Source: Chitinophaga pinensis (GTDB lineage Bacteria > Bacteroidota > Bacteroidia > Chitinophagales > Chitinophagaceae). From it: a stretch of 64,000 nt of DNA. The stretch lies in NCBI GenBank assembly GCA_943371565.1, contig CALRVH010000010.1, positions 23,940 through 87,939 of the forward strand. The letters run 5' to 3'. Shown one piece after another: positions 30,276-55,674 of the stretch. Below the pieces are notes generated by a model, which was not told where the DNA came from, made no database searches, and saw only the letters and a program-made list of their open reading frames with translations. Position numbers and translations under genes: made by a program. Numbering within the stretch: the stretch's first letter is position 1; each line of letters begins with the position of its first letter.

Positions 30276-30890
30276 TCATATCAGTTGAAGTTGTGTTGCT
30301 ATGCGGACAAGGGAAGCCGTATTTTTCGCTTCCAGTTTTGCCAATAAATTTTTACGATGCGTATCTACTGTAGCCGGGCTGATAAACAGTTTCTGTGCAA
30401 TTACGTTATTGGTCAAGCCTTCCGCAATCAATTCCAGTACTTCTTTTTCCCTGCGGGTAAGGATAACACTGGCTGATTCACTTTTTTGTAACGTTTTAGA
30501 AGCTTCATCGCTAAAATAAGTTTTTCCCTTAGCCGCTGTTTCAATAGCCTCCATTAATTCTTCCTGCGAAGCATTCTTCAACACATACCCGGAAGCTCCG
30601 CTATCCATCATTTTTTGAATAAAACTCAGCTGGTTGAATGTGCTTAACCCAATAATAAAAACAGAAGGATATTTCTGCTTTACCTCCTTACATAAATCTA
30701 TCCCGTTTATATCAGGCAAGTTGATGTCCATTAAAATAACATCCGGTTGTTCCTGTCGCAAAAATGCAAGACAAGAAGCGGCATTTGTTGCATGCCCTGT
30801 CCATTCGATACTCCTTTCATTTTGCAACAAAGAACGGATGCCTTCAATTACCATGTAATGGTCATCAACGATAAAAACTTTTATTTTCAT
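30276..30890 (-). CDS. NarL/LuxR-family response regulator
   Basis: Receiver domain (VDDH ... DVILMDINLPD) plus a LuxR HTH (LTRREKEVLELIAEGLTNNVIAQKLFISPATVDTHRKNL). It abuts the kinase gene with a 0-bp gap. Confidence 0.9.
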   Translation of the reverse strand: MKIKVFIVDDHYMVIEGIRSLLQNERSIEWTGHATNAASCLAFLRQEQPDVILMDINLPDINGIDLCKEVKQKYPSVFIIGLSTFNQLSFIQKMMDSGASGYVLKNASQEELMEAIETAAKGKTYFSDEASKTLQKSESASVILTRREKEVLELIAEGLTNNVIAQKLFISPATVDTHRKNLLAKLEAKNTASLVRIATQLQLI

Positions 30891-32837
30891 CTAAGCAGTT
30901 AATTCAATATGAACTGAAGTTCCCTTTCCCGGTTCGGACTGTACATCTAATTTACCTTTTAAATATTCAATCCGACTCTGGATATTGCTCCACCCCATTC
31001 CCTTTGTCCCTTGTAAAATTGCCGGGTTAAACCCTTTCCCATCATCTTCAACTGTAATATTAATTCCACTACCTTCTTTACTCACTTGTACTATAGCAGT
31101 TTTAGCGGCAGCATGTTTCATTGTATTGTTTATCAATTCCTGAACAATCCGATAAATGGCAATACTGGTGGATTGCTCTATAACAGCATTCTCCATTCCA
31201 ATGGACTGGTAACTGACCTGCAGGGCTCCTGATTGATTGATATCATTACAAAAGTCATTCAAGGCCGTATCTAATCCAAATTTCACAAGGGCTTCCGGCA
31301 TCATATTATGTGCCACCCGTCGCATTTCCTTGATAGAACTGTCCAGCATATCCATACTGCGTTCAAATGCCTGCTGATTGTCAGGCGTCATTACCAGGTT
31401 TCCTTTCATGGTTTGAAATGAATATTTAATGCCTGACAACATTCCTCCTAATCCGTCATGCAGGTCTTTTGCCAGGCGGGTTCTTTCCTGCTCCTCTCCT
31501 TGTAAAACTGCTTCGGCGGCAGCTAAATGTTTTTCAGTTTCCAATTCGCTGATACGTTGTTGCTGTAATTTTCTTTTTTGCCGGTAATTGCGGTAACTTA
31601 ATAATGAAACAAGAAGCAATGTGGCAGCACTGCCAATGAGAATATAATTGAATGTGCTTTTTCGTTGAATCTCTACTTTCTGCAATTTGATTTGAGTATC
31701 TTTTTTTTCAGTCTCGTATTTTTTTTCCAGATCAGCCGTACTCTTTAATACCTTTTCATTCAAAAAAGTATCACTAATTGAGTCAGCTTTCTGTTTTGCC
31801 ATGATGGAAGTAGCATAATCTCCATCCCTTGCAGCAATATAAGAAAGTACGGAATAGCTGTTTTTGAGTTCATCCCGTAAAGAATCCTGTATGGCTATGG
31901 CGAGTGCTTCGTTAATATTTTTTTTTGCCTCCGCATTATTTCCATTGAAAAACTGTGCATAGGCTATATTATACAAAGAACTGGCAAGCATTTGCCTGCT
32001 TTGTAACTCCCGGGATAGCAAAAGGGATTTTTGAGCAGCACTGAGCATATCGGCAAACCTGTTCATGCCAGCAAGCAGATTGCATTTGTATCCATATATC
32101 GCCCCTTCGGCATACTTATCATTCAGTCGTACTGATTCTTTAATGGCTACATCATAATAATACAATGCACTATCCTTCATACGGAGACCGTCATAACACT
32201 GCGCTAATGTTGCATAAGCCCGGTTGACATAATCATTTCGCAAGTTGAGTTTTGACCAGAGGTAAATCGAATAACCGGCTGCCTCTATCCCTTTTCTATA
32301 CTGACCGAGATTGTGATAAGAGTTTGACAAGTTGTGGTATATACCGGACAACTTTGTTGAGTCCTTTATTTTTTCGATAATTGTCATTACCTGCAATGTA
32401 TAATTCAACTGGTCGGCAAAATTTCCAAAATAGCCTTGTATGATCCCCATGTTATTCAACATGGCAATCACCTTGGATGAATCTTTTAATTTCCTTGCCA
32501 ACGTCAGCCCTTCTACAGACGTCTTCATGGCTGCATCATAATTCCCTTTTGTAAACGAAAGCACTGCACTCTGCTGATAATAATAGTACATCCCCTTGTC
32601 GAATTGCAAAGACTCCGACAAAGCTTTTCCCTTTTGCAGGTAATAAAATGAAGAATCCTGGTTATTCGTCTCATACCAGCTACCCAGCGTTAGTAGAATC
32701 ATAGCTTTACCTGTATCCTCTTTTGCTGTTACAAGTAATTTTAATAAACTGTCTACTTTTTGAGCCTGGTCAGTCCGTTGTGCTACGGCGACAACAGAAA
32801 AACAAGACACTGCCAGTATAAAAAAAAGTTTCCTCAT
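30891..32837 (-). CDS. TPR-repeat sensor histidine kinase (HisKA_3 type)
   Basis: ATG at 32837 gives a signal peptide (MRKLFFILAVSCFSVVAVAQ). This is followed by about 380 aa of TPR-like repeats, one TM helix (YILIGSAATLLLVSLL), the H-box LAKDLHDGLGGMLSGI and an HATPase_c domain. Confidence 0.85.
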   Translation of the reverse strand: MRKLFFILAVSCFSVVAVAQRTDQAQKVDSLLKLLVTAKEDTGKAMILLTLGSWYETNNQDSSFYYLQKGKALSESLQFDKGMYYYYQQSAVLSFTKGNYDAAMKTSVEGLTLARKLKDSSKVIAMLNNMGIIQGYFGNFADQLNYTLQVMTIIEKIKDSTKLSGIYHNLSNSYHNLGQYRKGIEAAGYSIYLWSKLNLRNDYVNRAYATLAQCYDGLRMKDSALYYYDVAIKESVRLNDKYAEGAIYGYKCNLLAGMNRFADMLSAAQKSLLLSRELQSRQMLASSLYNIAYAQFFNGNNAEAKKNINEALAIAIQDSLRDELKNSYSVLSYIAARDGDYATSIMAKQKADSISDTFLNEKVLKSTADLEKKYETEKKDTQIKLQKVEIQRKSTFNYILIGSAATLLLVSLLSYRNYRQKRKLQQQRISELETEKHLAAAEAVLQGEEQERTRLAKDLHDGLGGMLSGIKYSFQTMKGNLVMTPDNQQAFERSMDMLDSSIKEMRRVAHNMMPEALVKFGLDTALNDFCNDINQSGALQVSYQSIGMENAVIEQSTSIAIYRIVQELINNTMKHAAAKTAIVQVSKEGSGINITVEDDGKGFNPAILQGTKGMGWSNIQSRIEYLKGKLDVQSEPGKGTSVHIELTA

Positions 32838-32965
32838 AGCTTCAAAATAAGCCTTTACTTGTGCATTACAAAGTAACAGCCGCTTTTTACAGGCACACTC
32901 CCCTTTTTCCATGATTTTTTATAACATAATAAAAATCCTGTTTTTCAGGGATAGGTTTTCATTTC

Positions 32966-32984
32966 ATCAAATAGCATATTTGAT
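32966..32984. promoter_or_regulatory. Perfect 8-3-8 palindrome in the divergent control region (candidate operator)
   Basis: atcaaata-gca-tatttgat lies 18 nt upstream of the gene A start codon, inside the 164-bp kinase/gene A intergenic region. Confidence 0.3.
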
Positions 32985-33001
32985 AAAGCAAATTCATTTG
33001 T

Positions 33002-35590
33002 ATGAAAATTTATTTAATATCCGCTTTACTCTTTGTATCTGCTGTTGCATATTCACAACCCGTTAAGAAACCTGTACCGCAAAAAGAACCCACCACTTCT
33101 CAGCCTGATATGAATAAGCTGATGGAAGAAGCCATGAAGGGTATGAGCAAAGAAGAACAGGAAGAAATGAAAAAGCTGATGAAAGATATAATGCCAGCTT
33201 TGGAACAACATAACAAAACAGTAGCAGACTATCCGGAATTTACCACTAACAGCCAGCTAATACCCAAAAAAGACCCGGTACGAATAGCTACTATGTCTAA
33301 AAAAGCGCTGACCAAAACAGAAATAGCGGGTTATGCCAATGGGCTTTATAATAAAATGATGCTAAAGAGTGATCCGGCTGAAATAGCCATTGTTAAAAAG
33401 GTAATAGCTCAAACACCAAAAGCTTCCGATATAGGAAGCGCTGCTGTGCTGACGATGCTGCAAGGCCATCCCCAGGCAGCACTTGCATTAAGTATAAAAG
33501 CTGCGGCACTGGATCCGGCCAATCTTAACTGGCAAAACAATATGGCGGCTTTACTCACCAGCTATGGTTATCCTCAACAAGCCTTGCCTTTATTGAAAAA
33601 ACTACAAGAAGACCTTCCGCTGAACAGTACAATAATGAATAACATCGGGCAGGCTTGGCTCGGTCTCGGTGAACTTGACAGTGCCAAACGTTTTTTCTCA
33701 TTTGCATCCCGTATTAACCCCTATCACCCTGAAGCTAAGCTTTGCGGTGGTCTGATAGAGGAACTACAGGGAGACCCGGTAAAAGCGGAAGATTATTACA
33801 AAGAGGCGCTGGAAAATACTCCCAATCCTTTTACCGAACAGGTACTAAAGAACCATAACAAAAATTATAAGCTACAGGACCTCGATTTTGAAAAAATCAA
33901 AAAATTGATTGCCATCTATGAATACTTCCCCAAAAACTGGATGCCCGAACCACCTAAATTATCAAACAATGTTAAACATTACAATGAGGACTATGCCACC
34001 AAAAAGGCCTATGCTAAAATGGTTGACAACTTCAAAAACAAAATAGATGTAATGACCGATGAGCTGGACCAGGAGCTACAGGAGACAGTTAATAAAGGAG
34101 AAGAAACCTTTATTAAAGAAATGGCTACTGAAACTATAAAGGGTTTAAGCTTTATAAGCAAATCTGCCACCATCGTACTCGGCGTATTAGGTGCCTACCA
34201 GCTTAAGTGGCAACAAGATCATGCGGAAGAGATTAAGAAAATGCTGGCCTGGAAAGAACAGTTACGAATAGATAAACAACAAAAAATTGATGCCATCTAT
34301 AAGACAATAAGTGATAGCAAAGGCACCCGTTGCGAAACATTCAAAAGCCAGCTGGATGGTCTGGAGAATGATTATATGAGAGCAGTGAACACCCGATTCC
34401 GGGATTACCTCACTAAAAAAATAGAAGAATTCAGACAATGGCTGAATGCCTGGTGTACCTGGAACTGGTATGTGGCGGGTAATGTAAAAAATAATATCCT
34501 GTTGCAGGATGTTGGATTCACCGGATACCTGGCTGAACTCTATGGCAGCATTACAGATGCTATGGAAACCCGCACAGAACATTGTAGCCCGCGGACATAT
34601 GAAGTGAAGAAGGAATTCGTTGAGCCGGAGGTGCCCAACTTTACCTGCCCGGCAGTTGTAAGTATTCCTGCAGGACCCGAATGGCAGCAATTAGTAGCCG
34701 GAGCAAAAGATTTTGACAAAAATGGTTATGGCATCAAAAAAACAGACAAGCCAGTTCCCAATGTAACAGTTGCGACTGGTTCCGGTAAAATGGTGGCCCA
34801 GCCGGGAATCAGCCCTTCTTACAAAACAGCTAATGGTGGCATAACCCCAGGAAGTGCTGATGTGGAAGCCGCCATAGACAAAGGCTTACTGGCGGCGCTT
34901 CGGAGAGTAAATGGCAACCCCAACCCTTCAGATGGACAAGTAACCGATGCCATAGACAAAGGATTATCTGATGCCATGAAAAGAATGCAGGAAAAACGGA
35001 AGCAAGGTGTTCTGGGTGATGATGATGAGCTGGTTCCTCTCCCCAATATTCCCAGGGATGAACTTACCCCACTCGATCCAAAATTGCTCAATAAATATAA
35101 ATTATTCAAAGAACTGATGAATAAGATGCTTACTGCAGACTGTAAGAATGTAAAAACCCCCAAAGAAAACCTGAAAGAACAATTGGACAAGATGATGAAA
35201 AAAGTGAAGGAACTGGAAGCATATGAAAATGTGATAGAACAGATCAAAGAACTGGAAAGACAAATTGAACAAAAAGAAGCTGACGAAACGAAAAAGGAAG
35301 AGTTCAGAAAGAAAATTGAAGCATTCCAAAAAAATGTTGATGCGCTGGACGTTTATGAACAAATGAATGAGTTTCTTAAAAAAGCAGAACAATTCAGTAA
35401 GGAAATGGATGCGATGGACGACAAAAAAGCATTTAGAGATAATACACAAAAAATTATGAAGATGGTGGAGGAAATGGAAAATACTTCTACCAACCTGAAA
35501 GATATTCAGCAGAATGGGCTGCAGCCTTCTATTAGCAGTGGTTTGCAGGCACCGGGCACTTTTACACCCAACAAAACACTCTTTCAGTAA
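33002..35590 (+). CDS. Exported TPR + coiled-coil protein, function unknown (locus gene A)
   Basis: Signal peptide (..SAVAYS/Q). TPR-like helices span about aa 140-280, and the K/E-rich heptad-like C-terminal region is about 170 aa. The exact 14-nt repeat gccatagacaaagg at 34871 and 34949 encodes a duplicated AIDKGL motif. No family recognised. Confidence 0.7.
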   Translation: MKIYLISALLFVSAVAYSQPVKKPVPQKEPTTSQPDMNKLMEEAMKGMSKEEQEEMKKLMKDIMPALEQHNKTVADYPEFTTNSQLIPKKDPVRIATMSKKALTKTEIAGYANGLYNKMMLKSDPAEIAIVKKVIAQTPKASDIGSAAVLTMLQGHPQAALALSIKAAALDPANLNWQNNMAALLTSYGYPQQALPLLKKLQEDLPLNSTIMNNIGQAWLGLGELDSAKRFFSFASRINPYHPEAKLCGGLIEELQGDPVKAEDYYKEALENTPNPFTEQVLKNHNKNYKLQDLDFEKIKKLIAIYEYFPKNWMPEPPKLSNNVKHYNEDYATKKAYAKMVDNFKNKIDVMTDELDQELQETVNKGEETFIKEMATETIKGLSFISKSATIVLGVLGAYQLKWQQDHAEEIKKMLAWKEQLRIDKQQKIDAIYKTISDSKGTRCETFKSQLDGLENDYMRAVNTRFRDYLTKKIEEFRQWLNAWCTWNWYVAGNVKNNILLQDVGFTGYLAELYGSITDAMETRTEHCSPRTYEVKKEFVEPEVPNFTCPAVVSIPAGPEWQQLVAGAKDFDKNGYGIKKTDKPVPNVTVATGSGKMVAQPGISPSYKTANGGITPGSADVEAAIDKGLLAALRRVNGNPNPSDGQVTDAIDKGLSDAMKRMQEKRKQGVLGDDDELVPLPNIPRDELTPLDPKLLNKYKLFKELMNKMLTADCKNVKTPKENLKEQLDKMMKKVKELEAYENVIEQIKELERQIEQKEADETKKEEFRKKIEAFQKNVDALDVYEQMNEFLKKAEQFSKEMDAMDDKKAFRDNTQKIMKMVEEMENTSTNLKDIQQNGLQPSISSGLQAPGTFTPNKTLFQ

Positions 35591-35611
35591 TACGATAAAA
35601 TATAATTCTCT

Positions 35612-37183
35612 ATGAAGAATAAAACAAATAAAATGAAAAGTATAAAATTCAGGCCCGTTATTGTATTGTTGCTGTTTAGTGCCTTTTCGCTGACAATGCA
35701 GGCACAGATACTGAATAAAATAAAACGCAAGGTTGAGAATACAGTAACCAAACCTTCAGATAAGCCAGCGGAGAACAAAGAACAAACCAGTACAAATGAT
35801 ACCAAGGAGGTAAATAACACTCCCCCAACAACCGACAATACAAAAACAGGGTCGGTAAAACCAACTGAAGAAAACAAAATCACCGGGGAGTCTGATTTCA
35901 TTCCCGGTTCTACCGTACTTTACTTTGATAATTTTATAAATGAACGTACCGGTGATAGTCCGGCCGGATGGCTTACTACCCGTTCTGCAGAAGTAGTTGG
36001 CCTTGATGGTTTGAAAGGGAAATGGCTAAAACTGGCATCGGTCAGTTCAAATCATATTACCCGTAATAAGAAGCAAAGCTGGGGCAACAGTTTTACAGTG
36101 GAGTTCGACCTCCTGATTATAAAGAAAGATTATGACCCGAGAATAGATTTTGCCCTTATCAATACCGGTGGCAGCCTGGTAACAGACGAAATGATATTAA
36201 GAAACGGCAAGAACATGGTGTATGTAAGTACCATACTGGGAAATGAAGGTAAAACGGCCCGGGTTTCACTTTATAACAATAACAATATTAACAAACCGGT
36301 AGCAGATAAAATGTCCGAGCAACTTGCCTACAGCAATACTATTCCTGTTCATGTGAGTATGTGTGTACAAGGAAAAAGGTTTCGGTTCTGGTGGGATGAT
36401 AAAAAAATCTTTGACATGGAAACGGTCAATGAGCAATACATGCCCAACCAACTTGGAATCAATTTTGGAAGTGTGGGTGGTTCTGAATATTATATTACCA
36501 ATATCAGGATAGCTAAAGATATACCCGCTACCCGTCCAGCCACTCCGGCTGCGGATAAGAGTACCGATCAGGTTGAGAATACTGTCCCGGCAAAAACGGA
36601 CGGCAAAATAAATGCATCAGCAGAAGGTCCTGCAACAGTGAATCTTCAAAGTAAAATACTTACTACCAGCCTGCCCTATGCCCAGATCATGAAAACAGGA
36701 GAATTCACTTACACTTTTATTGCCACAAAGGAAGAAGGCAACAATAAGGAAAACTATTTAAAAATCAAATTAGAAACCGGTAATACAACGCTCAAAGCGG
36801 AAACATTCAATTTCAAAGAGATCAACAAAAAAAATCCGCTGTACGGGACAAAAAAATATCCAGAGATATCCGCTACTGAAGCAGTATTATATTATGGAGC
36901 TACAAAAAAACCTTACATCTATAAATTCTCCCCGATCATTGCGAACGGAACAATGGCTTCGTATGTTGACGAATCTCTGGCCAGAAATTTACCGGCAGTA
37001 TCACCCAACAGCAAGTTCGTAATAGAAAAAATAGAGAATGGGAAAGCTAGCGGTTATTTCATTATGGGTATCATGATACAGGGTTTAAAACCGGTTACAA
37101 AAGGAGATGCCATGACAGAAACATTCACTGATGGCTTTTCGGGTGAACTAAAATGTACTTTTTCCAATGTGCCTGTCTATTAA
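35612..37183 (+). CDS. Exported protein with jelly-roll-like module shared with gene C (locus gene B)
   Basis: Signal peptide (..SLTMQAQ), a T/N/P-rich linker, then a module at 35897-36520 (YFDNF..SPAGW..GKWLKL..FTVEFDL..YITNIRIAK). The C-terminal ~190 aa are unassigned. Confidence 0.7.
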   Translation: MKNKTNKMKSIKFRPVIVLLLFSAFSLTMQAQILNKIKRKVENTVTKPSDKPAENKEQTSTNDTKEVNNTPPTTDNTKTGSVKPTEENKITGESDFIPGSTVLYFDNFINERTGDSPAGWLTTRSAEVVGLDGLKGKWLKLASVSSNHITRNKKQSWGNSFTVEFDLLIIKKDYDPRIDFALINTGGSLVTDEMILRNGKNMVYVSTILGNEGKTARVSLYNNNNINKPVADKMSEQLAYSNTIPVHVSMCVQGKRFRFWWDDKKIFDMETVNEQYMPNQLGINFGSVGGSEYYITNIRIAKDIPATRPATPAADKSTDQVENTVPAKTDGKINASAEGPATVNLQSKILTTSLPYAQIMKTGEFTYTFIATKEEGNNKENYLKIKLETGNTTLKAETFNFKEINKKNPLYGTKKYPEISATEAVLYYGATKKPYIYKFSPIIANGTMASYVDESLARNLPAVSPNSKFVIEKIENGKASGYFIMGIMIQGLKPVTKGDAMTETFTDGFSGELKCTFSNVPVY

Positions 37184-37235
37184 TTCCGGCAGGCAAATTA
37201 ACTCCCAAAGGCTGAAAGAAACTTTAAATAAAAAT

Positions 37236-39107
37236 ATGCGACTACTAATTTTTTTATCAGTACTTATTGTTAGCAACTACACATTTGCCCAAAAACACAA
37301 TGAGGCATATGAAGATTTATCCCTGGGCTGGATGAAGATCTACAAATTTAAAGGCGCAAGCAAACCGGCCCAGGTGGATGAGAAAAAATATTCAATAGCA
37401 CAGCTATCGGTCATAGACTCATTTGCCAACTGGATGCAGGCAAGCTATACACCCAAAGGCAGTTTAGGAGATATAAAAAAGTATGTAACACCTAAAAAAA
37501 ATGTATACCATGAGAGGTATAATGAAGCGGTACCGCACAGTTACGGTGCTAGTGCTTACAGCTATACTTTTTTAAAGCAAACCAATGGTAAATGGCAGCC
37601 TTATATGAATTTTGCAAACTACTGGACCATTGCCGCCAATGAAATACCACTTACCTACAGGGAAATTGAATTTAACACCAATAAAACCTGTTTGTTTATG
37701 CTGCCGCTTTACGATGAAAAAAGTCTGGCAGACGATCCCAATTCTTTAGACGCAAAAACAAAAAAACTGTTTGACCTCTCTGCACACCCAATCCTGAAAA
37801 AATATATCTACTACAATTTAAAAGCATATAATAAAGATTTTGGGAATAATCTCGTCATACTCAGCAAAAACAACAAGTTTCCCTTTTTACCAGTTAGCAT
37901 TGGCGAGGCTTTGCAGTTTGCAGAAGATGCTTTTCCGGTTAAATATGCTGAACAAAAGAAAACAGCCACTGAACAAAACTCTTATGATGCCAGACACTTA
38001 CAATCGGCCATGAAAAATCTTGATGAAAAATTCAGCAAAGCCAGGGCTACCATCATAAAACTCAGAGAAAAATATCAGAGCCAATTGAATGAACAGGCTT
38101 ACATGAAATATGGAGGCTACTCCATACAGAGCTTAACCAATGGCTCAGACATTTTTGAGAATGGAAATACAAGGCAAGACGGGAGTTTTAATAAGAGTTA
38201 CCCCCTTTTTAGAGTTGATCCTGAGATGCAGGCAAAATGCAGTACAGATAAACCACAATGGATAGTTATTAAATGGTTCGGTGGTTTAATGGATGAAATT
38301 GCATTTAAACACATGCATGAATCCATCATCAATAATTTTGATTTCGACTATTTATATAATTTCTTTTTTGCCCCGGAGAAAGTAAAAGGAGTAACGTACA
38401 AACCACTTCGTTCACCCAATAGGGAAGAAAAAACTATTACTACTGAAAAATCTGAAGCATCAAAAAATATGGAAGCCGATGCGTCTGTTTTTTTCTTTGA
38501 AGATTTTTCGGGTACTCCTGCAGGTCAAAAACCGGCAGGCTGGAAATCTTCTATGAATTCAGACGCCAAATATTCATCCGTTACGGTACTTCCCGGAAAG
38601 GAAGGAAAATGGCTGGAAATAAAGGGACATCCCAATTTGGTTCCCGAAAATCTTAAAAAACCACTGCCTCAAAATTTTGAATTATCGTTTGATCTAGCGG
38701 TGCCTAAAGACATTCAGTGGGGTGCAAAAGCCTTAGAGTTTTATATAGGCACAAATAACAAATACGACGAAAGTGTTCCTTCCTTGAATTTACGGTTAAG
38801 GGCTGGTTTTTCTGGAAGAGCTGGCGAAGGATCTATTGCCGGCAAGTTTGGAAATGGATATTTTAATACATACAAGTATTTCGAGGCAACAGGTTTCTCA
38901 AACGATAAAGAAATCAACAATGTAAAAATCACCTTGAGGAAGAACGGTGAATTGTTTGAATTATATATTGACAAAAACAAAATTGCTGATATACCAAAAG
39001 CATTTCCGGCCAATACTTTATTCAACTGGCTTCAGTTCAAACATCTGAATAGTGACGCAGATAATCAAAAATACTTTATTAGTAATATTAAAATTACCCG
39101 AATATAA
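37236..39107 (+). CDS. Exported protein, unknown N-domain + C-terminal module shared with gene B (locus gene C)
   Basis: ATG at 37236 gives a signal peptide (MRLLIFLSVLIVSNYTFAQ). The C-terminal 208 aa (38481-39104) are FFEDF..KPAGW..GKWLEI..FELSFDL..FISNIKITR, parallel to gene B. Confidence 0.7.
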   Translation: MRLLIFLSVLIVSNYTFAQKHNEAYEDLSLGWMKIYKFKGASKPAQVDEKKYSIAQLSVIDSFANWMQASYTPKGSLGDIKKYVTPKKNVYHERYNEAVPHSYGASAYSYTFLKQTNGKWQPYMNFANYWTIAANEIPLTYREIEFNTNKTCLFMLPLYDEKSLADDPNSLDAKTKKLFDLSAHPILKKYIYYNLKAYNKDFGNNLVILSKNNKFPFLPVSIGEALQFAEDAFPVKYAEQKKTATEQNSYDARHLQSAMKNLDEKFSKARATIIKLREKYQSQLNEQAYMKYGGYSIQSLTNGSDIFENGNTRQDGSFNKSYPLFRVDPEMQAKCSTDKPQWIVIKWFGGLMDEIAFKHMHESIINNFDFDYLYNFFFAPEKVKGVTYKPLRSPNREEKTITTEKSEASKNMEADASVFFFEDFSGTPAGQKPAGWKSSMNSDAKYSSVTVLPGKEGKWLEIKGHPNLVPENLKKPLPQNFELSFDLAVPKDIQWGAKALEFYIGTNNKYDESVPSLNLRLRAGFSGRAGEGSIAGKFGNGYFNTYKYFEATGFSNDKEINNVKITLRKNGELFELYIDKNKIADIPKAFPANTLFNWLQFKHLNSDADNQKYFISNIKITRI

Positions 39108-39170
39108 ATCTCCTTTTTCAGGAATATAATTGCTTGGTAAAGCAACCCTTTTAAACTGAAAACAGTTGAT

Positions 39171-40220
39171 ATGAAAAAAATCTTTCTTCCCCTGATTATT
39201 CTTAGCCTGTCTGTTATTGCTTTTGCACAGGAACAAGAAACATTTGACATTATTACATATACTCCTCCGCCGGGTGGCGGATGGAAAGCTGAGCAAAAGC
39301 AAAATGTAATAGGCTATACAATTACAGATAAAATTAAAAAGACCTGGTGCCAATTAGGGATTTACAAAAGCACTGCCAGCAAAGGAAACATTGAAAGCGA
39401 TTTCAAAAACGAATGGGATGAACTGGCTGTTAAACAATATAAGGCTACCGGGCTTACAGAAAACGAAGTAATAACAACTGATGGATGGAAAATAAAAGCC
39501 GGTGGCGGAAAATTCAAGTTCAACAATGCAGACGCTATGGTCTTGCTAACTACTATTACGGGGTATAAAGTTTGTGTAAGCATTCTCGCCATTACCAATA
39601 CCGAGGATTATATTGACGAAGTACAAGCCTTGCTTGAATCCATTGACTTAAAAATACCGGATACTACTAAAGCGAATGTGCCGCCAGGAAACAATCCTCC
39701 TGCTAATACAAACACTGCCAATGCAACCATTGCAGGCACCTGGATAAAATCAGGCAGTGTAAACCCGGTATATGGCAATCCCGTATCATGGGGGACTGGT
39801 GGCTATACCAAAGATGAATATATTTTATACCCAAACGGCACTTTTAAATTTTACTCCAAATCATTTGGCTATTCAATTACCAACCTGATTTTTGTAAAGG
39901 AAAGCGGCACTTACAACATCAACGGCAATAGCATCACCCTTACTCCAAAATCAAGTATAGTAGAAGCCTGGAGTAAAAAAGACGGCACTGATAACTGGGG
40001 CAAATTAGTCAGCAGTAACAAGCGGAATAATGAAACAGTCACTTATACCTTTACTAAACATTATTTCAGCGGTATTCAACAATGGAATCTCGTATTACAA
40101 ACAGCCAAACCCACCAACAGAGATGGAAGCTTCAGCAGCAATACGCTATTCCCCAATGCTTATTATTATGCACCCGTATCCGTAAATAATACAGCCATTA
40201 ATTTGCCTCCCGGCAACTAA
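39171..40220 (+). CDS. Exported two-domain protein, paralogous N-domain with gene E (locus gene D)
   Basis: Signal peptide (..VIAFAQ), an N-module at aa 21-161, a PPGNNPPANTNTANA linker, and a C-terminal lipocalin-like pattern (GTWIK...YILYPNGTFKF...GTYNINGNSITL). Confidence 0.7.
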   Translation: MKKIFLPLIILSLSVIAFAQEQETFDIITYTPPPGGGWKAEQKQNVIGYTITDKIKKTWCQLGIYKSTASKGNIESDFKNEWDELAVKQYKATGLTENEVITTDGWKIKAGGGKFKFNNADAMVLLTTITGYKVCVSILAITNTEDYIDEVQALLESIDLKIPDTTKANVPPGNNPPANTNTANATIAGTWIKSGSVNPVYGNPVSWGTGGYTKDEYILYPNGTFKFYSKSFGYSITNLIFVKESGTYNINGNSITLTPKSSIVEAWSKKDGTDNWGKLVSSNKRNNETVTYTFTKHYFSGIQQWNLVLQTAKPTNRDGSFSSNTLFPNAYYYAPVSVNNTAINLPPGN

Positions 40221-40270
40221 ATCAAAAAGTATAATCAGCAATATGAAAATCATAAAAGAGTAAACTATCA

Positions 40271-41641
40271 ATGATGAAAAAAGTATTTTTCCTTAGCGTC
40301 TTCTGTGTTTCTACGGTCATCTCATTTGCCCAAAAAGAAACATTTGACCTTACTACTTACACTTCACCTACAGGATGGGAGAAAAAACCTTCTGAAAGTG
40401 GTATTCAGTTTACAAAAGAGGATGTGACAAAAGGAGCTTATTGTATAATAACATTGTTTAAAGCGGTACCAGGAACTTCCAATTCAAAAGAAAATTTTGA
40501 TCTTGCATGGACTTCTATAGTCAAAGAAATGGTAACCGTTTCAACTGCACCTGAAATGCAGCCCGTCGCTACCGAAAATGGGTGGGAGGCACAAAGTGGC
40601 TATGCCCCTTTTGAAAGCGATGGCAATAAAGGTATTGTCTTATTAATAACTTCAAGTGGCTTTGAAAAGATGGTCAACATTATTATCCTTACCAATACGG
40701 ATATATATGAAAAAGACATGACTGAGTTTTTGGAATCAGTTAGTTTAATTAAGCCTGCAGGAGGAACCAGTAAAATAAACAACCCAGCCACGAACCAGGT
40801 AAAATCACCGCCGGTAAAGACAACGGCCAAAGCAGATGGATATGCATTTACAACCACTAATTTTGATGATGGCTGGACCAGTACCGTACACGAAGATTGG
40901 GTAGAAGTAAAGAAAGCTGATATTAAAGTACTGATCCATTATCCCAATAAATCTGCAGATACATACAATTCTGTTGTAATGTATGGACTAAAAAATGCAT
41001 GGAATGTTTTGGTTGCACCCAAATACAGCACAGCAAGTAATTTTGAATTTAAACCCATAACTGGCTGGCAGTCTATTGAATTTGCAGAAGCCGATGCGGT
41101 GGAAAAAGGAACAAACAAATCAGTTCATGTTGTATTGTTTAAAATGAATTATTCTGGTGGCAATGGAAGATATTTAGAGTTTATAACTTCCAGTAAAAAT
41201 TCTTTTGAACAGGAATTTGGTGCATACCATCAAACTACATCCGGATGGGAGCAAATGGAGAAGATGGCAAACTATAACAAGTTTGCTGTAGCTAATTCTG
41301 ACCTGAAAGGCAAATGGACCAGCAATTTTACCGGAATGCAACAATATGTAAATGCTTACACAGGTACCAGTGCTGGTGCAGATACCCATGCCTCAAATGA
41401 AAATTTTGAATTTGGCCCTGCCAATACTTATAAATGGGACCTGGGTGTTGCGAGTGGGTTTGTAGGAAATATTAAGTTTCAAAGTGCAAAGTCAAATGGA
41501 AAATTTTCATTACCCAACAACTGGCAGGTGAGTTTCTCAGATATCGAAGGCAAACCAAAAATCTACAATACCTTTTTCTCCTGTGTAAAAGGTGCGAGGG
41601 TATTATGGATTGGTGATACTGGTTTTGGCAAAATAGAATAA
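40271..41641 (+). CDS. Exported two-domain protein, paralogous N-domain with gene D (locus gene E)
   Basis: Signal peptide (..VISFAQ). The N-module at aa 21-161 is collinear with gene D (ETFDxxTYTxPxGW, C..I..FK, GW, LL.T, IL.TNT, LESxxL). The C-terminal ~270 aa are unassigned. Confidence 0.7.
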   Translation: MMKKVFFLSVFCVSTVISFAQKETFDLTTYTSPTGWEKKPSESGIQFTKEDVTKGAYCIITLFKAVPGTSNSKENFDLAWTSIVKEMVTVSTAPEMQPVATENGWEAQSGYAPFESDGNKGIVLLITSSGFEKMVNIIILTNTDIYEKDMTEFLESVSLIKPAGGTSKINNPATNQVKSPPVKTTAKADGYAFTTTNFDDGWTSTVHEDWVEVKKADIKVLIHYPNKSADTYNSVVMYGLKNAWNVLVAPKYSTASNFEFKPITGWQSIEFAEADAVEKGTNKSVHVVLFKMNYSGGNGRYLEFITSSKNSFEQEFGAYHQTTSGWEQMEKMANYNKFAVANSDLKGKWTSNFTGMQQYVNAYTGTSAGADTHASNENFEFGPANTYKWDLGVASGFVGNIKFQSAKSNGKFSLPNNWQVSFSDIEGKPKIYNTFFSCVKGARVLWIGDTGFGKIE

Positions 41642-41671
41642 ATATTTCTGGAAATAATAAAACAATTGAAT

Positions 41672-42724
41672 ATGAAAAAAATATTGCTAATAGTTTGCTT
41701 TTTACCAACATTGAATGCAATGGCTTTTGATACCTGGTGGCATGCAGAATGTACCCGCAAGGCAATGGTGGCAAACGGATTTTCAGGGGATGCCAGACTG
41801 GCAACCCAAGTATCAAACTATATTACGGATTTTCAATCTGCTGCTTTATTTGGCACCGGCATACCCGAAAAACAAAGAGTTGAAGTATTTAAGCTCAAGC
41901 AGGAAATGTCATATGAGTACATGCACTTTGATGCGATTTACTCAACTGCGGATATAGAAAAAAACTGGCAAAGCATTTATGAAAATACTATTCAGACGCT
42001 AAAAAAATATAATAATAACCCGGATGTAAAAAGCGGCTTTCGGTTAATTATTTTATTCAATATCATTGGCGCCTCGCTGCACATAGTGCAGGATTATTAC
42101 TCACACTCTAACTGGGTAAATACATATACATTACTTAACAAAAGCCCAATTCCCACCTGGTATGAGGAGGATAGTGTCTACCGGAAAAGTCTGTATTTAT
42201 ATACCGGAGCTTACCCCGACGGTTCGGCTAAAGGAAAAAAAAATCATTCCGAGTTAAATAAAGATTGCTCAAGCTTAGACCTTAACAAAGAAGCAGTAGA
42301 AGTTGCAGAAAGAGCCTCCATAGAATGGATTAAAAAAATAGTCGCGGCTACCCCTGAACTGCCATGGGCTGAATTGAAAAATTATAATATACAAAATGAC
42401 CCTATACTGAAAAATTTTCTTGTAAAACTCGATGCAACTTTCCTTACATCAAGTTCTATTGTGGCCGGACACCTCGATGGCAGCAAACCAGCTAAATTTA
42501 TCTTTTCTGCTGAAAAAAATTTAGTAAAGGAACAATCTATGGCCCTGGCTGCACTTAATCTTACTATCGGCGAATACTCCGCTTATTTGACGCTGGAAAG
42601 GAATATTTACAAAATCCCTTCCCCATATTGGGCTGGATTCAGGGTTTATTTTATAACACGGGATATTGCAAATGGATTAAGCCACAGCAATAAGAAATAT
42701 GTTAAACCACCTAAAACAAACTAA
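41672..42724 (+). CDS. Exported protein with HFDA and LHxxQDYYSHSNW motifs (putative metal-dependent hydrolase; locus gene F)
   Basis: ATG at 41672. Signal peptide ends ..LNAMA/FD. The motifs MHFDAIY and SLHIVQDYYSHSNWV resemble, from memory, the N-terminal domain of VWA7-like proteins (HFDAE, LHALQDFYSHSNWVE). His/Asp spacing is reminiscent of zinc PLC/S1-P1 nuclease sites. Confidence 0.65.
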   Translation: MKKILLIVCFLPTLNAMAFDTWWHAECTRKAMVANGFSGDARLATQVSNYITDFQSAALFGTGIPEKQRVEVFKLKQEMSYEYMHFDAIYSTADIEKNWQSIYENTIQTLKKYNNNPDVKSGFRLIILFNIIGASLHIVQDYYSHSNWVNTYTLLNKSPIPTWYEEDSVYRKSLYLYTGAYPDGSAKGKKNHSELNKDCSSLDLNKEAVEVAERASIEWIKKIVAATPELPWAELKNYNIQNDPILKNFLVKLDATFLTSSSIVAGHLDGSKPAKFIFSAEKNLVKEQSMALAALNLTIGEYSAYLTLERNIYKIPSPYWAGFRVYFITRDIANGLSHSNKKYVKPPKTN

Positions 42725-49199: not shown

Positions 49200-49997
49200 T
49201 CAAAACCGGATACTGAAATGCTGTTTTTCACTGAATTCCTCCCTGAAAAATACGATACCAATAAAAAAAAGATCAATACTGCAGCGGACAGCGGGATGTG
49301 ACTTAATGGTTTCCCAGGCCTGTTCCATTTCCTTGCTCCAGTGTATATCATCAAAAATTATAATGGACTCATTGTGTGTTTTAGAGAGCATCTCCTTAAA
49401 ATATCTTTCTGTAGGCTCCTGCCGGTGATTACCGTCAATAAAAGCAAAGTCCACGGTCGTCAAACCAGAAACCACAGCAGATAGTGTGTTGTCAAAATTT
49501 CCTTCGATCAGCGAATAGTTTTTGAGGCCTAAAGTTTGGAAGTTTTCGTTTGCAGTTTTGGCTACTTCTTTTGCACCTTCCAGGGTTATCAGTTTAGCTT
49601 CGGGCCTTGCCAATGATAAATAAGATGTAGTAATACCTAAAGATGTACCCAGTTCTACTATTGTTGGAGGTTGGTATTCTCGTATAATTCTAAAAAGTAG
49701 CTGCCCAAACTTTTTCGGTTTGGCTGAGTTTTTTGCAATTTCTGCAACTGTTCGTTTGTTGGTTTTATTGACAGCAGAACCGGCTCCAAAATCTGCGATT
49801 GTTAATTCGGTTTTATCCGCTAATAACTTATTGCGGAGATTTTCAACTTTCTCATATGCCGGGTAAGGCATTTTATCATTCAATACCTTAGTAATAAATT
49901 GAAATACAAAAGGAGAATGAATGCCGTGACCTTTACCGTTTGATGCGGTGAAATAGTAGTTGAGATATTTAAGTGCTAGCTGGGTCTTTGTGTACAT
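49200..49997 (-). CDS. Class I SAM-dependent (O-)methyltransferase
   Basis: Motif I VELGTSLG and FIDGNH, resembling O-methyltransferase family 3-like proteins. Confidence 0.65.
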   Translation of the reverse strand: MYTKTQLALKYLNYYFTASNGKGHGIHSPFVFQFITKVLNDKMPYPAYEKVENLRNKLLADKTELTIADFGAGSAVNKTNKRTVAEIAKNSAKPKKFGQLLFRIIREYQPPTIVELGTSLGITTSYLSLARPEAKLITLEGAKEVAKTANENFQTLGLKNYSLIEGNFDNTLSAVVSGLTTVDFAFIDGNHRQEPTERYFKEMLSKTHNESIIIFDDIHWSKEMEQAWETIKSHPAVRCSIDLFFIGIVFFREEFSEKQHFSIRF

Positions 49998-54045: not shown

Positions 54046-55674
54046 TCACTTCGAATCAGCAATCCATTTTTTTAACATCCCGACATATCCGGTCACAGCT
54101 TCATTATCCTGATCCATTGCCAGGTATTTTTCAAACCAGCTTAAAGATGTTGGATAATCCTTTGTTATGTTTGCTTCATATCCACCCAGGTATCCATATG
54201 CCTTCAACAACATTTTTTTATTCACTTTCTTATTTCGCTCACCTATTTCCACTACTTTATTATAATATGGAATCGCTAATGCGTTTGTCATACTAGTATC
54301 AATGGCGGCATTGGCCTGTGCCCTCCAGTAATATCCATAAATATCTACCGGGTAACGGGTTGTATAAAGACCAAACACACTGTCTGTTTGAGAGTATTCT
54401 TTAGCAGTGTAATGAGCCAGCCCCCAATTAAAGAGGTCAACATTATTTGACTTTTCTTTCCACTGGTACAATTTTCCAAGCCAGATAGCCTGGTGGCTGT
54501 AATCTTCAGTTTGTTTATACATATCCGCAATCTTAGTTGCGTATTTCACTTTTTTGATTATTGCTGTGTCCATTTCTGTGGCAATGGCATAATATTCAAT
54601 CGCAGCTTCTTTAGCCCCGGTTACTTTTTCTGTCAGCTGTGCTCTCAATTCAAAATCAGCTGCTATAAACTTATCAGGATCTTCCTTACTGAAATACTCA
54701 GCGATATACTGAATTGCCTGCATTGAATCACCGGCCTTAGCCGAAGAATAAGCCATCAGTTTATAAAGACGGGGCTGACTTTCTTCCATTTTTTTTTCTA
54801 TTATACTTTTTGCTGCTTGTATTGCACTGGTATACTCTCCGTTCAAATAAAGAATATCAGTCATATAATAATCATTCTGCTCCGAGTAATCTGAATTAGC
54901 AATATACTTATCAAGGTATTTTTTTGCTTCCTTTATATCCCTGTAATAATAATATTTATATAATTCGTCCAGAACGGGTGCATAGGTAGAATCAATCTGG
55001 TAGGCTTTGGTAAAATGCTCCAGGTACACATCCGGGTTCTTTTGTGCGGTAAATATTTTTCCAATCAGGTAATGAGCTTTCAGGCTTTGAGGATCTTTTT
55101 TCAATGCCTCCTGGTAAGCAACAAAGGCATTGCTGGCATCTGATAATTTTCGGTATGCAAGTCCTTTTAAAATATCAATTGCTGAATTATTTTTATCCCG
55201 TTTTTCAGCCATATCCAACCAACTGATAGCAGCCCGGGCATCTCCATCCTTTTCATCAATATTGGCTTCTGCCATTGCAATTAACAATGAAGGATTTTTC
55301 TGATTCTTTTTTTCATTAAGAAGTGAAGCAAATATTTCATCTGCCGCAGGCTTATTTCCTGTACCCATTAAGTAACGGGCATAAGCAATTTTGTCCATTG
55401 CATTAGCATTGTTGCTTATAGCCGGAAGCAAATAATCATCTATATATTTTTTAGCTTCATCTGTCTTCTCCTGATTAAGATATGTTTTCACCAATAAGTA
55501 GCTTGCCTCCGTTTCAACAGGTACTGCAGTGGCCGCTTTTTCCAATATTACTTCGGCACTTTGATATCTTTCGTTTTCTATGAATTGTTTTGCTTCGGCC
55601 AGTTCTTGTGCATCCAATAGACCGGTTTTAAATAAAACAGCGGTAAACAATATTATTAGTTTAGTAGTTTTCAT
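54046..55674 (-). CDS. Exported tetratricopeptide-repeat protein
   Basis: Signal peptide, with TPR-like 34-aa helical repeats throughout. Confidence 0.7.
   Translation of the reverse strand: MKTTKLIILFTAVLFKTGLLDAQELAEAKQFIENERYQSAEVILEKAATAVPVETEASYLLVKTYLNQEKTDEAKKYIDDYLLPAISNNANAMDKIAYARYLMGTGNKPAADEIFASLLNEKKNQKNPSLLIAMAEANIDEKDGDARAAISWLDMAEKRDKNNSAIDILKGLAYRKLSDASNAFVAYQEALKKDPQSLKAHYLIGKIFTAQKNPDVYLEHFTKAYQIDSTYAPVLDELYKYYYYRDIKEAKKYLDKYIANSDYSEQNDYYMTDILYLNGEYTSAIQAAKSIIEKKMEESQPRLYKLMAYSSAKAGDSMQAIQYIAEYFSKEDPDKFIAADFELRAQLTEKVTGAKEAAIEYYAIATEMDTAIIKKVKYATKIADMYKQTEDYSHQAIWLGKLYQWKEKSNNVDLFNWGLAHYTAKEYSQTDSVFGLYTTRYPVDIYGYYWRAQANAAIDTSMTNALAIPYYNKVVEIGERNKKVNKKMLLKAYGYLGGYEANITKDYPTSLSWFEKYLAMDQDNEAVTGYVGMLKKWIADSK

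Follow-up and report, generated by a model that had tools for sequence, protein, structure and literature searches.

A sensor kinase/response regulator pair, a shared palindromic promoter site and divergent genes for exported proteins in Chitinophaga pinensis: a putative envelope regulon of Bacteroidota

This study concerns a locus in a 64,000-nt stretch of the Chitinophaga pinensis assembly GCA_943371565.1 (contig CALRVH010000010.1, positions 23,940 to 87,939, forward strand; the whole stretch is hereafter the window), in which the genes for a sensor kinase and a response regulator diverge from six genes, A to F, encoding exported proteins (Table 1). On balance, we regard this locus as one instance of an autoregulated two-component regulon, modular in make-up, which has envelope proteins as its members and ranges widely in Bacteroidota. 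The kinase, which combines an extracytoplasmic TPR sensor with a HisKA_3 core, is paired with a NarL/LuxR-type regulator, and the pair's own operon has its promoter architecture in common with the cassette genes. The cassette proteins are Sec-exported non-lipoproteins built by shuffling binding modules, namely TPRs, a family-specific alpha/beta domain, ConA-like jelly rolls, PsbP/DcrB-like sandwiches and small beta-barrels. No published description of the system was found in the literature, and the view of a preliminary description of the sequence, that this is a regulated, extracytoplasmic and undescribed locus, is supported.

A palindromic promoter site before the signalling pair and the exported genes

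Two blocks, S1 and S2, recur in the spacers that separate the kinase gene from the first divergent gene, across loci whose C proteins are only ~40% identical, and the divergent spacers of nearly all kinase-linked relatives carry both. S2 is an 18-bp palindrome, ATCCYnTTTTTnRGGGAT, and S1 a degenerate copy of it on the kinase side, CTCCCCTTTTTCCATGAT. An alignment of related sites anchored on S2 revealed a second conserved block, cAtTTTTa, which begins 22 nt past S2 and, in 34 of 44 related sites, ends 30 nt past it; the start codon follows ~20 nt later. The block resembles the Bacteroidota −7 element, TAnnTTTG. This 22-nt geometry is obeyed at three places in the window: before A, before D (box CTTTTAAA, 22 nt after the copy S2′ in the C–D gap) and toward the kinase. 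At the box position of the kinase promoter, ‘ACAAATAAA’ is conserved in related spacers.

The placement of S2 was followed through 80 loci encoding C homologues, which were collected by a pattern scan with one genome per species and then analysed with tblastn, clustering of open reading frames (ORFs) and hhalign. Within them, S2 occurs 59 times with no more than one mismatch, in every case on the cassette strand, and 54 of these sites are intergenic though the DNA is 90% coding. Downstream of the sites lie A-like genes, D/E-family genes (S2 then usually sits in the gap that follows C) and a number of small exported families, and S2 stands before cassette genes even where no kinase lies within 10 kb. 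A position weight matrix (PWM) built from sites in related loci was also run across the 64-kb window, which has one exact S2 site; the only other match above 14 bits is the copy in the C–D gap. Two more S2-like matches, at 49239-49256 (−) and 55195-55212 (+), were rejected and are regarded as chance, having two mismatches each and scoring below 14 bits on the PWM.

In many related loci a good S2 site is found in the corresponding gap, between C and a D/E-family gene. Because the C–D gap of the window holds a promoter-like site followed by a box, at least two cassette transcription units are probably implied, A-B-C and D-E(-F), where the preliminary description had seen a single six-gene operon; the second site is the weaker one. 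S2 was also considered as an RNA hairpin or terminator, which is unlikely: the −7-like box comes only after it and there is no T-run behind it, and a terminator is further disfavoured because S2 also occurs in the divergent spacer, where nothing needs terminating. Scans for sigma-70 promoters and intrinsic terminators were uninformative, with counts near shuffle expectation and a consensus that is wrong for Bacteroidota.

Public metagenome contigs were then scanned with the motif alone (S2, 23 N, ANTTT), which gave at least 124 sites on at least 120 contigs. Among the matches listed (124 sites on 120 contigs), 90 sites have an ORF start within 160 nt downstream, and signal-peptide-like N-termini were found on 70 of the 79 unique downstream ORFs, against a background of 162 of 468 non-cassette ORFs of the first 80 loci. 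The downstream families in these listed matches are A-like (11), jelly-roll (11), u27 (7) and u11 (6), together with u24, u6, u10 and others. New members among them are a small protein with a type IX secretion system C-terminal domain (T9SS-CTD), a VWA lipoprotein, an astacin-like peptidase and a jelly-roll protein fused to OmpA_C. A full-length regulator 49–78% identical to that of the window is encoded on 22 of the 120 listed contigs (795 kb of motif-selected DNA) and kinase homologues on 40 of them; in metagenome contigs the motif precedes both a full-length kinase gene and stand-alone kinase-core genes. Since the search used the motif only, these results indicate that the DNA element, the regulator family and the genes for exported proteins travel together. 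Moreover, the presence of the same control site before many other, unrelated exported proteins argues for a regulon rather than a fixed complex.

The two signalling proteins were classified by their domains. The regulator is of the NarL/FixJ (LuxR-type) class, with Pfam matches to Response_reg (6.5e-28) and GerE (4e-21); the residues DD at 9-10 and the D within LMDINLP are visible in its sequence. All NCBIfam equivalogs, NarP and UhpA among them, scored it below their cut-offs, MctR best (196.7 against 300), and NarL at 131.6 against 250. The kinase is a HisKA_3 sensor kinase, with Pfam matches to TPR_12, HisKA_3 (7.8e-12) and HATPase_c (1.1e-14), and one internal transmembrane segment was read by eye in its translation. 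Its longest ORF starts at 32912 (MEKGECACKK..., adding window positions 32838-32912 on the minus strand), and the same ‘MEKGE’ reading occurs in a close relative, L005. This start was rejected, as its ATG lies within conserved S1 and upstream of the −7-like box; the kinase start was placed at 32837 because of the promoter geometry (S1, 22 nt, box). The recurrence of the MEKGE reading in L005 indicates that a conserved DNA motif can be mis-called as coding sequence.

Two variants of the pair were seen elsewhere. Four metagenome contigs (L088, L165, L180 and L186) have an S2-plus-box promoter before stand-alone soluble proteins of ~173 aa, which consist of the HisKA_3/HATPase core of the kinase without sensor or transmembrane segment. 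The closest relatives of the locus carry a second, paralogous TPR-kinase/regulator pair (L001:16791-21858 and L005:19400-21860; regulator 46% identical), which has its own S1/S2-like spacer and different exported genes, for a tail-fibre-like protein (u6) and a PsbP-like protein. One genome can thus hold several such modules.

Table 1. Coordinates of genes and promoter elements at the locus (positions in the window).
Feature	Position	Strand	Description
Response regulator	30276-30890	−	NarL/LuxR-type; REC and GerE helix-turn-helix (HTH)
Sensor kinase	30891-32837	−	Signal peptide or first transmembrane segment, periplasmic TPR array, transmembrane segment, HisKA_3, HATPase_c
−7-like box of kinase/regulator promoter	32868-32875	−	TACTTTGT; 22 nt after S1 read toward the kinase
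S1	32898-32918		CTCCCCTTTTTCCATGATTTT; in the spacer, toward the kinase; a single exact match within the window
S2, putative regulator operator of the A promoter	32935-32952	+	ATCCTGTTTTTCAGGGAT; exact match, PWM 36 bits
−7-like box of A promoter	32975-32982	+	CATATTTG; 22 nt after S2
A	33002-35590	+	Exported; Met-rich N-terminal segment, TPRs, u2-like middle domain, K/E coiled coil
B	35612-37183	+	Exported jelly-roll protein with a further C-terminal domain; accessory
C	37236-39107	+	Exported core protein; alpha/beta N-domain (aa 20-400), ConA-like jelly roll (aa 415-623)
S2′, probable internal promoter	39108-39125	+	ATCTCCTTTTTCAGGAAT; in the C–D gap; two mismatches, PWM 15 bits
D	39171-40220	+	Exported; E-like N-terminal module, C-terminal module related to the E beta-barrel
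E	40271-41641	+	Exported; two PsbP/Mog1/DcrB-like domains and a beta-barrel
F	41672-42724	+	Exported; Het-C/VWA7_N-type predicted metal-dependent phosphoesterase; neighbour, not cassette core

Gene content of related loci

Linkage was counted in the 39 C-anchored loci that have at least 6 kb of sequence on both sides. An A-like TPR gene lies near C in 23 of them, a D/E-family gene in 27 and both in 20; the kinase/regulator pair is nearby in 14, a B-like gene in four and F in one. The conserved core is an A-like TPR protein, C and the D/E-family proteins, while B and F are accessory. The preliminary description had proposed a survey of gene neighbourhoods, and its outcome is mixed: the divergent link between the kinase/regulator pair and exported genes is conserved (14/39) and is backed by the shared operator-like palindrome, but A to F as one conserved unit is not borne out. 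Arrays of C and D/E-family paralogues are common, and gene content and paralogue number vary widely between relatives. The cassette was found in Chitinophagaceae, Cyclobacteriaceae and other Cytophagales, Chryseolinea and some Bacteroidales metagenome-assembled genomes (MAGs), and in many Chitinophagaceae it sits in the same namZ...fmt-lysM-rsmF frame as in the window.

One could argue that there is no system here and that unrelated exported genes have come to lie beside a two-component pair by chance. None of the proteins is functionally annotated, and nine of the 39 loci have C without cassette partners. Against this, the linkage recurs across Bacteroidota families, the control site is held in common with a fixed promoter geometry, and the motif-only search recovered the same gene families and the same regulator family. 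Synteny and motif statistics already contradict a chance assembly, which we consider extremely improbable.

Two further observations were made in the related loci. Cassette-linked proteins of ~170 aa (L012:3665-4180, and family u15 in L004, L005, L014, L018, L027 and L047) match Pfam T6SS_HCP at 2.5e-10 and yet have a signal peptide at the start, export being unusual for an Hcp-like protein. Seven contigs with this Bacteroidota-type cassette gene (L002, L033, L034, L054, L055, L058 and L060) are labelled as MAGs of Bordetella parapertussis, Thiobacillus, Tepidiphilus, Gemmatimonadales, Acidobacteriota or Aminicenantes. The taxonomic labels of MAGs cannot always be relied on, and these contigs are probably mis-binned or wrongly named.

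Exported proteins of the cassette

All eight ORFs sit at the coordinates given in the preliminary description, which was likewise right about the short intergenic gaps (21, 52, 63, 50 and 30 nt along A to F) and about the divergent pair across a 164-bp spacer, a length that applies provided the kinase starts at 32837 (MRKLFF). The flanking genes that it had called namZ-like and fmt were identified as NamZ on the left and Fmt on the right. Signal-peptide-like N-termini, with a positively charged N-region and a hydrophobic core, are present on the products of A to F and on the kinase. The Bacteroidota pattern A-x-A|Q ends the signal peptides of five of the six products and of the kinase, and that of F ends AMA|FD. 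No lipobox was seen by eye in the N-termini of A to F or the kinase, and Pfam and NCBIfam scans of A to F gave no match to Por_Secre_tail, the T9SS sorting domain, in agreement with the earlier statement that the products are exported without either feature.

That none of these proteins belongs to a recognisable family holds for C, D and E, which have no Pfam or NCBIfam match, but needs qualification for B and F, whose matches are sub-threshold only; for B the sole match is to DUF6250. A has TPR matches alone. PADLOC and PHROGs scans of A to F returned no matches, and sequence and profile searches of PDB with B, C, E and F found nothing, which for F includes Zn-dependent phospholipase C and S1-P1 nuclease.

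Protein A carries its TPRs at aa ~130-300 and a stretch of 32% K+E at aa 691-845, bearing out the exported TPRs and K/E coiled coil noted before. In 23 of the 39 fully flanked loci its first 300 aa are conserved; the non-TPR remainder is homologous to a stand-alone gene family, u2 (hhalign 99.9%). A segment at aa 36-70 (window 33107-33211) is Met-rich, with seven Met in 35 aa (DMNKLMEEAMKGMSKEEQEEMKKLMKDIM), and its Met positions are conserved in A-like proteins. The match of this segment to CpxP/Spy-like Metal_resist is very weak (E-value 0.33); this might point to a chaperone-like or metal-binding role.

Proteins B and C share a module, as the preliminary description had proposed: B100-171 aligns with C416-491 at 30% identity (E-value 7e-7; hhalign 98%, Cj against Bn). 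In relatives the slot between A and C is filled by other families, u11 or u5. C has 693 homologues, all annotated as hypothetical. Its AlphaFold (AF2) model, made from 76 homologues, has a pLDDT (predicted local distance difference test) of 91 and shows an alpha/beta N-domain, which includes a long helical hairpin, ahead of a C-terminal jelly roll. Foldseek matched the jelly roll (aa 415-623) to the lectin-like Hc-N domain of botulinum neurotoxin, GH16 enzymes and phage LamG proteins with probability 1.0 and TMt up to 0.65, which places it, and by homology the module of B, with the ConA-like lectin/glucanase (LamG, DUF1080-type) domains. Searches of PDB and BFVD with the C model gave jelly-roll matches only, the jelly roll dominating both, with the whole model as query. 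A phmmer search found 212 representatives of the N-domain among 1.84e9 proteins, in proteins of ~390 aa (the domain alone) or ~620 aa (with jelly roll); the domain alone constitutes family u5 (hhalign 95%).

The resemblance of the B and C jelly rolls to GH16 and lectin domains raises the question of nutrient scavenging, in which lectin- and lipocalin-like proteins would capture glycan or lipid in the periplasm under substrate-sensing control, much as in a polysaccharide utilisation locus (PUL). Lipocalin-like modules do occur in some relatives, and the left neighbour is NamZ. However, the locus and its flanks (26-46 kb) have neither SusC/SusD with glycan-active enzymes nor a TonB-dependent or inner-membrane transporter, and no PUL stood out in related loci, where selected families were scanned. 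There is no Pfam match to GH16 or any other glycoside hydrolase, and the GH16 motif ExDxxE was not seen when the C jelly roll was read by eye. Moreover, the members found by motif are adhesin-, OmpA- and protease-like rather than catabolic. Nutrient scavenging is thus unlikely.

Proteins D and E are linked by a second common module, here too in line with the preliminary description: D1-180 aligns with E2-184 at 32% identity (E-value 1e-23), and the C-terminal module of D corresponds to the beta-barrel of E at hhalign 66% (Y against Z2). The AF2 model of E (pLDDT 78) has two PsbP/Mog1/DcrB/Tsi3-like sandwiches and a C-terminal beta-barrel. Foldseek aligned it with PsbP structures at an E-value of 5e-4 (TMt 0.59-0.62), and also with DcrB, Tsi3 and MTC28, assigning E to the PsbP/Mog1-like fold; there was no Pfam match to PsbP. 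The two alpha/beta domains of E superpose on PsbP, DcrB, Tsi3 and MTC28 with TMt of 0.35-0.65 and probability 1.0, but these proteins have no sequence similarity to D or E, and the fold is a generic binding scaffold that does not fix a function. By homology to E, the N-terminal module of D is predicted to be PsbP-like. More than 1890 homologues of E were found, none with a Pfam domain, and identity across 120 clusters is 63-84%. The PsbP-like module occurs alone as family u1 (hhalign 94%, u1 against X), and in some relatives D- and E-type C-terminal modules are fused. The structure search that had been proposed for the locus, run on C and E, accordingly placed neither in a characterised sequence family, yet it did find binding folds, the jelly roll and the PsbP-like sandwich.

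Protein F approaches two Pfam families, VWA7_N (1.3e-5; 25.2 bits, cut-off 27.5) and Het-C (0.015; 14.3 bits, cut-off 21), and PF25107 is carried by 118 of 120 F homologues among the matches listed. Invariant in 39 homologues are FDTWWH at the mature N-terminus (H24), H85-F-D87, H137xxxD141xxxH145 and, within an NHSE motif at 191-194 (N191, E194), H192. The published Het-C signature comprises a conserved H, HxD, HxxxDxxxH and Nxx[DE] (Zhang et al., 2012, PMC3482391), and a prediction for the domain is that Zn-phospholipase C and S1-P1 nuclease have the same fold and active site (PMC3482391). The residues of F fit this signature, having HxD, HxxxDxxxH, NxxE and the N-terminal His (H24). Unlike the Het-C/VWA7_N (Tox-HET-C) proteins, F is a stand-alone Sec-exported protein and not a C-terminal toxin module.

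Homologues of F elsewhere adjoin genes for an M48 peptidase and SET-domain proteins, or FabH, or a His_Phos_1 gene. These unrelated contexts and the linkage to C in one locus of 39 indicate that F is an independently distributed neighbour and not a catalytic centre. F is probably a secreted Zn phosphoesterase in its own right, whose co-transcription at this locus would follow from its position only. The earlier note of catalytic-looking His/Asp motifs in F was apt, as they fit a predicted phosphoesterase signature, but their place at the catalytic heart of a six-gene machine was not upheld. In L001 (14801-15607), L011, L018 and L081 (5188-5997), a gene for an M48 metallopeptidase lipoprotein precedes F, often with two SET-domain genes nearby; the window lacks this M48 gene, so F directly follows E.

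The preliminary description had cast A to F as one multi-component periplasmic or surface machine, or an enzyme-plus-binding-protein set, with F as a phosphoesterase acting on lipid or nucleic acid. The six genes are indeed co-directional with gaps of 21-63 nt, all six products are exported, and F has the Het-C active-site signature. Such an assembly is nevertheless very unlikely, given the rarity of F (1/39) and of B-like genes (4/39) in the fully flanked loci, the unrelated genes that flank F elsewhere, the wide variation in gene content and paralogue number, and the promoter-like site inside the supposed operon; furthermore, A to F include no membrane-embedded or energy-coupling component.

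The locus could alternatively be an interbacterial-conflict island, with F as a secreted Het-C toxin and D/E and the paralogue arrays as periplasmic immunity proteins or decoys induced on attack. Polymorphic toxin systems use Het-C as a toxin domain (PMC3482391), the E domains match the type VI secretion system (T6SS) immunity protein Tsi3 (TMt 0.6-0.65), the loci have paralogue arrays and variable content, and some relatives carry exported Hcp-like and tail-fibre-like genes. Yet F is not generally linked to D/E, the E fold matches PsbP, DcrB and MTC28 equally well and is hence generic, and the 63-84% identity of E across 120 clusters is unlike that of fast-evolving immunity genes. No T6SS genes, toxin-immunity pairs or PADLOC matches were found. 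We judge a conflict island to be quite unlikely.

Proposed regulation and comparison with known systems

In the regulon that we favour, the periplasmic TPR array of the kinase would serve as the sensor, and the phosphorylated regulator would bind, as a dimer, to the palindrome; inverted repeats are what dimers of the GerE/LuxR-type HTH recognise. The regulator would then activate promoters that have no −33 element, including that of its own operon; the site sits where a −33 element is expected, and its fixed phasing with the −7-like box points to activation and positive autoregulation. The products may be ligand- or protein-binding factors of the periplasm or envelope. We tentatively suggest a role in envelope or cell-surface remodelling or stress, rather than a dedicated machine, because no catalytic signature is seen in the core products and the regulon defined by the motif contains peptidases, an OmpA_C fusion and adhesin-like proteins.

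Several points weigh against this scheme. As the site overlaps the −33 region, the regulator could instead repress by occlusion, and its putative link to the palindrome is drawn from co-occurrence. The second site of the window is weak, at 15 bits compared with 36 for the first. Of the 124 motif sites among the matches listed, 34 have no downstream ORF, and some hits are probably due to chance. Nine of the 39 fully flanked loci have C with neither a cassette partner nor a kinase within 7 kb. The suggested function comes only from generic binding folds, and for the 380-aa N-domain of C both fold searches were dominated by the jelly roll.

The nearest comparison for the signalling logic is with LiaFSR and VraSR of Firmicutes, which also combine a HisKA_3 kinase with a NarL-family regulator. 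LiaS is an intramembrane-sensing kinase partnered with LiaF, whereas the kinase here has a ~370-aa periplasmic TPR sensor and reaches 83 bits with NCBIfam LiaS (cut-off 450); the two systems also have unrelated target proteins and different operator sequences. LiaR, an envelope-stress regulator of the NarL family, has binding sites in front of liaXYZ and in front of its own operon, liaFSR (PMC4482077). By analogy, S2 and S1 may take those two roles, before an envelope target operon and before the regulator's own operon.

The Cpx, Rcs and sigma-E systems of Proteobacteria are similar in another respect, in that a sensor of the extracytoplasmic space controls scattered genes, whose exported products are chaperone-like, proteases or associated with the outer membrane; among the members that the motif defines here are an M48 peptidase, an astacin-like peptidase, the OmpA_C fusion and TPR proteins. 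No component is homologous, however, and the stress role is only inferred in the present case. Within Bacteroidota, FimS of Porphyromonas gingivalis is a kinase with an extracytoplasmic TPR sensor, and its NCBIfam model, HK_Porph_FimS, matches the N-terminal TPR region of our kinase (E-value 7.4e-11). At 41 bits against a cut-off of 600, and in the TPR region only, this match does not make the two orthologues. FimS controls fimbrial genes, and there are none at this locus.

Judging from these family comparisons, the signalling parts are ordinary HisKA_3 and NarL family members, and it is the sensor domain, the operator and the output proteins that differ from the Lia/Vra and Cpx/Rcs systems. 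The general logic, a two-component envelope regulon, is familiar, and the outputs are uncharacterised. Outside a few gut and oral species, little of the signalling in envelope stress and surface remodelling has been mapped in Bacteroidota. For lineages that are common in soil, freshwater and activated sludge, the locus offers three testable handles, namely a candidate sensor, a candidate regulator and an 18-bp operator with fixed promoter geometry. The operator defines a regulon of uncharacterised exported protein families, enables prediction of that regulon genome by genome and allows reporter screens for the inducing signal. It is possible, though doubtful at this stage, that the TPR-kinase/NarL pair, the operator and the regulon of exported modules constitute a major unrecognised envelope-sensing pathway of environmental Bacteroidota, a counterpart of Cpx, Rcs or Lia. 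If so, its outputs would come from families without a characterised member, including the N-domain of C.

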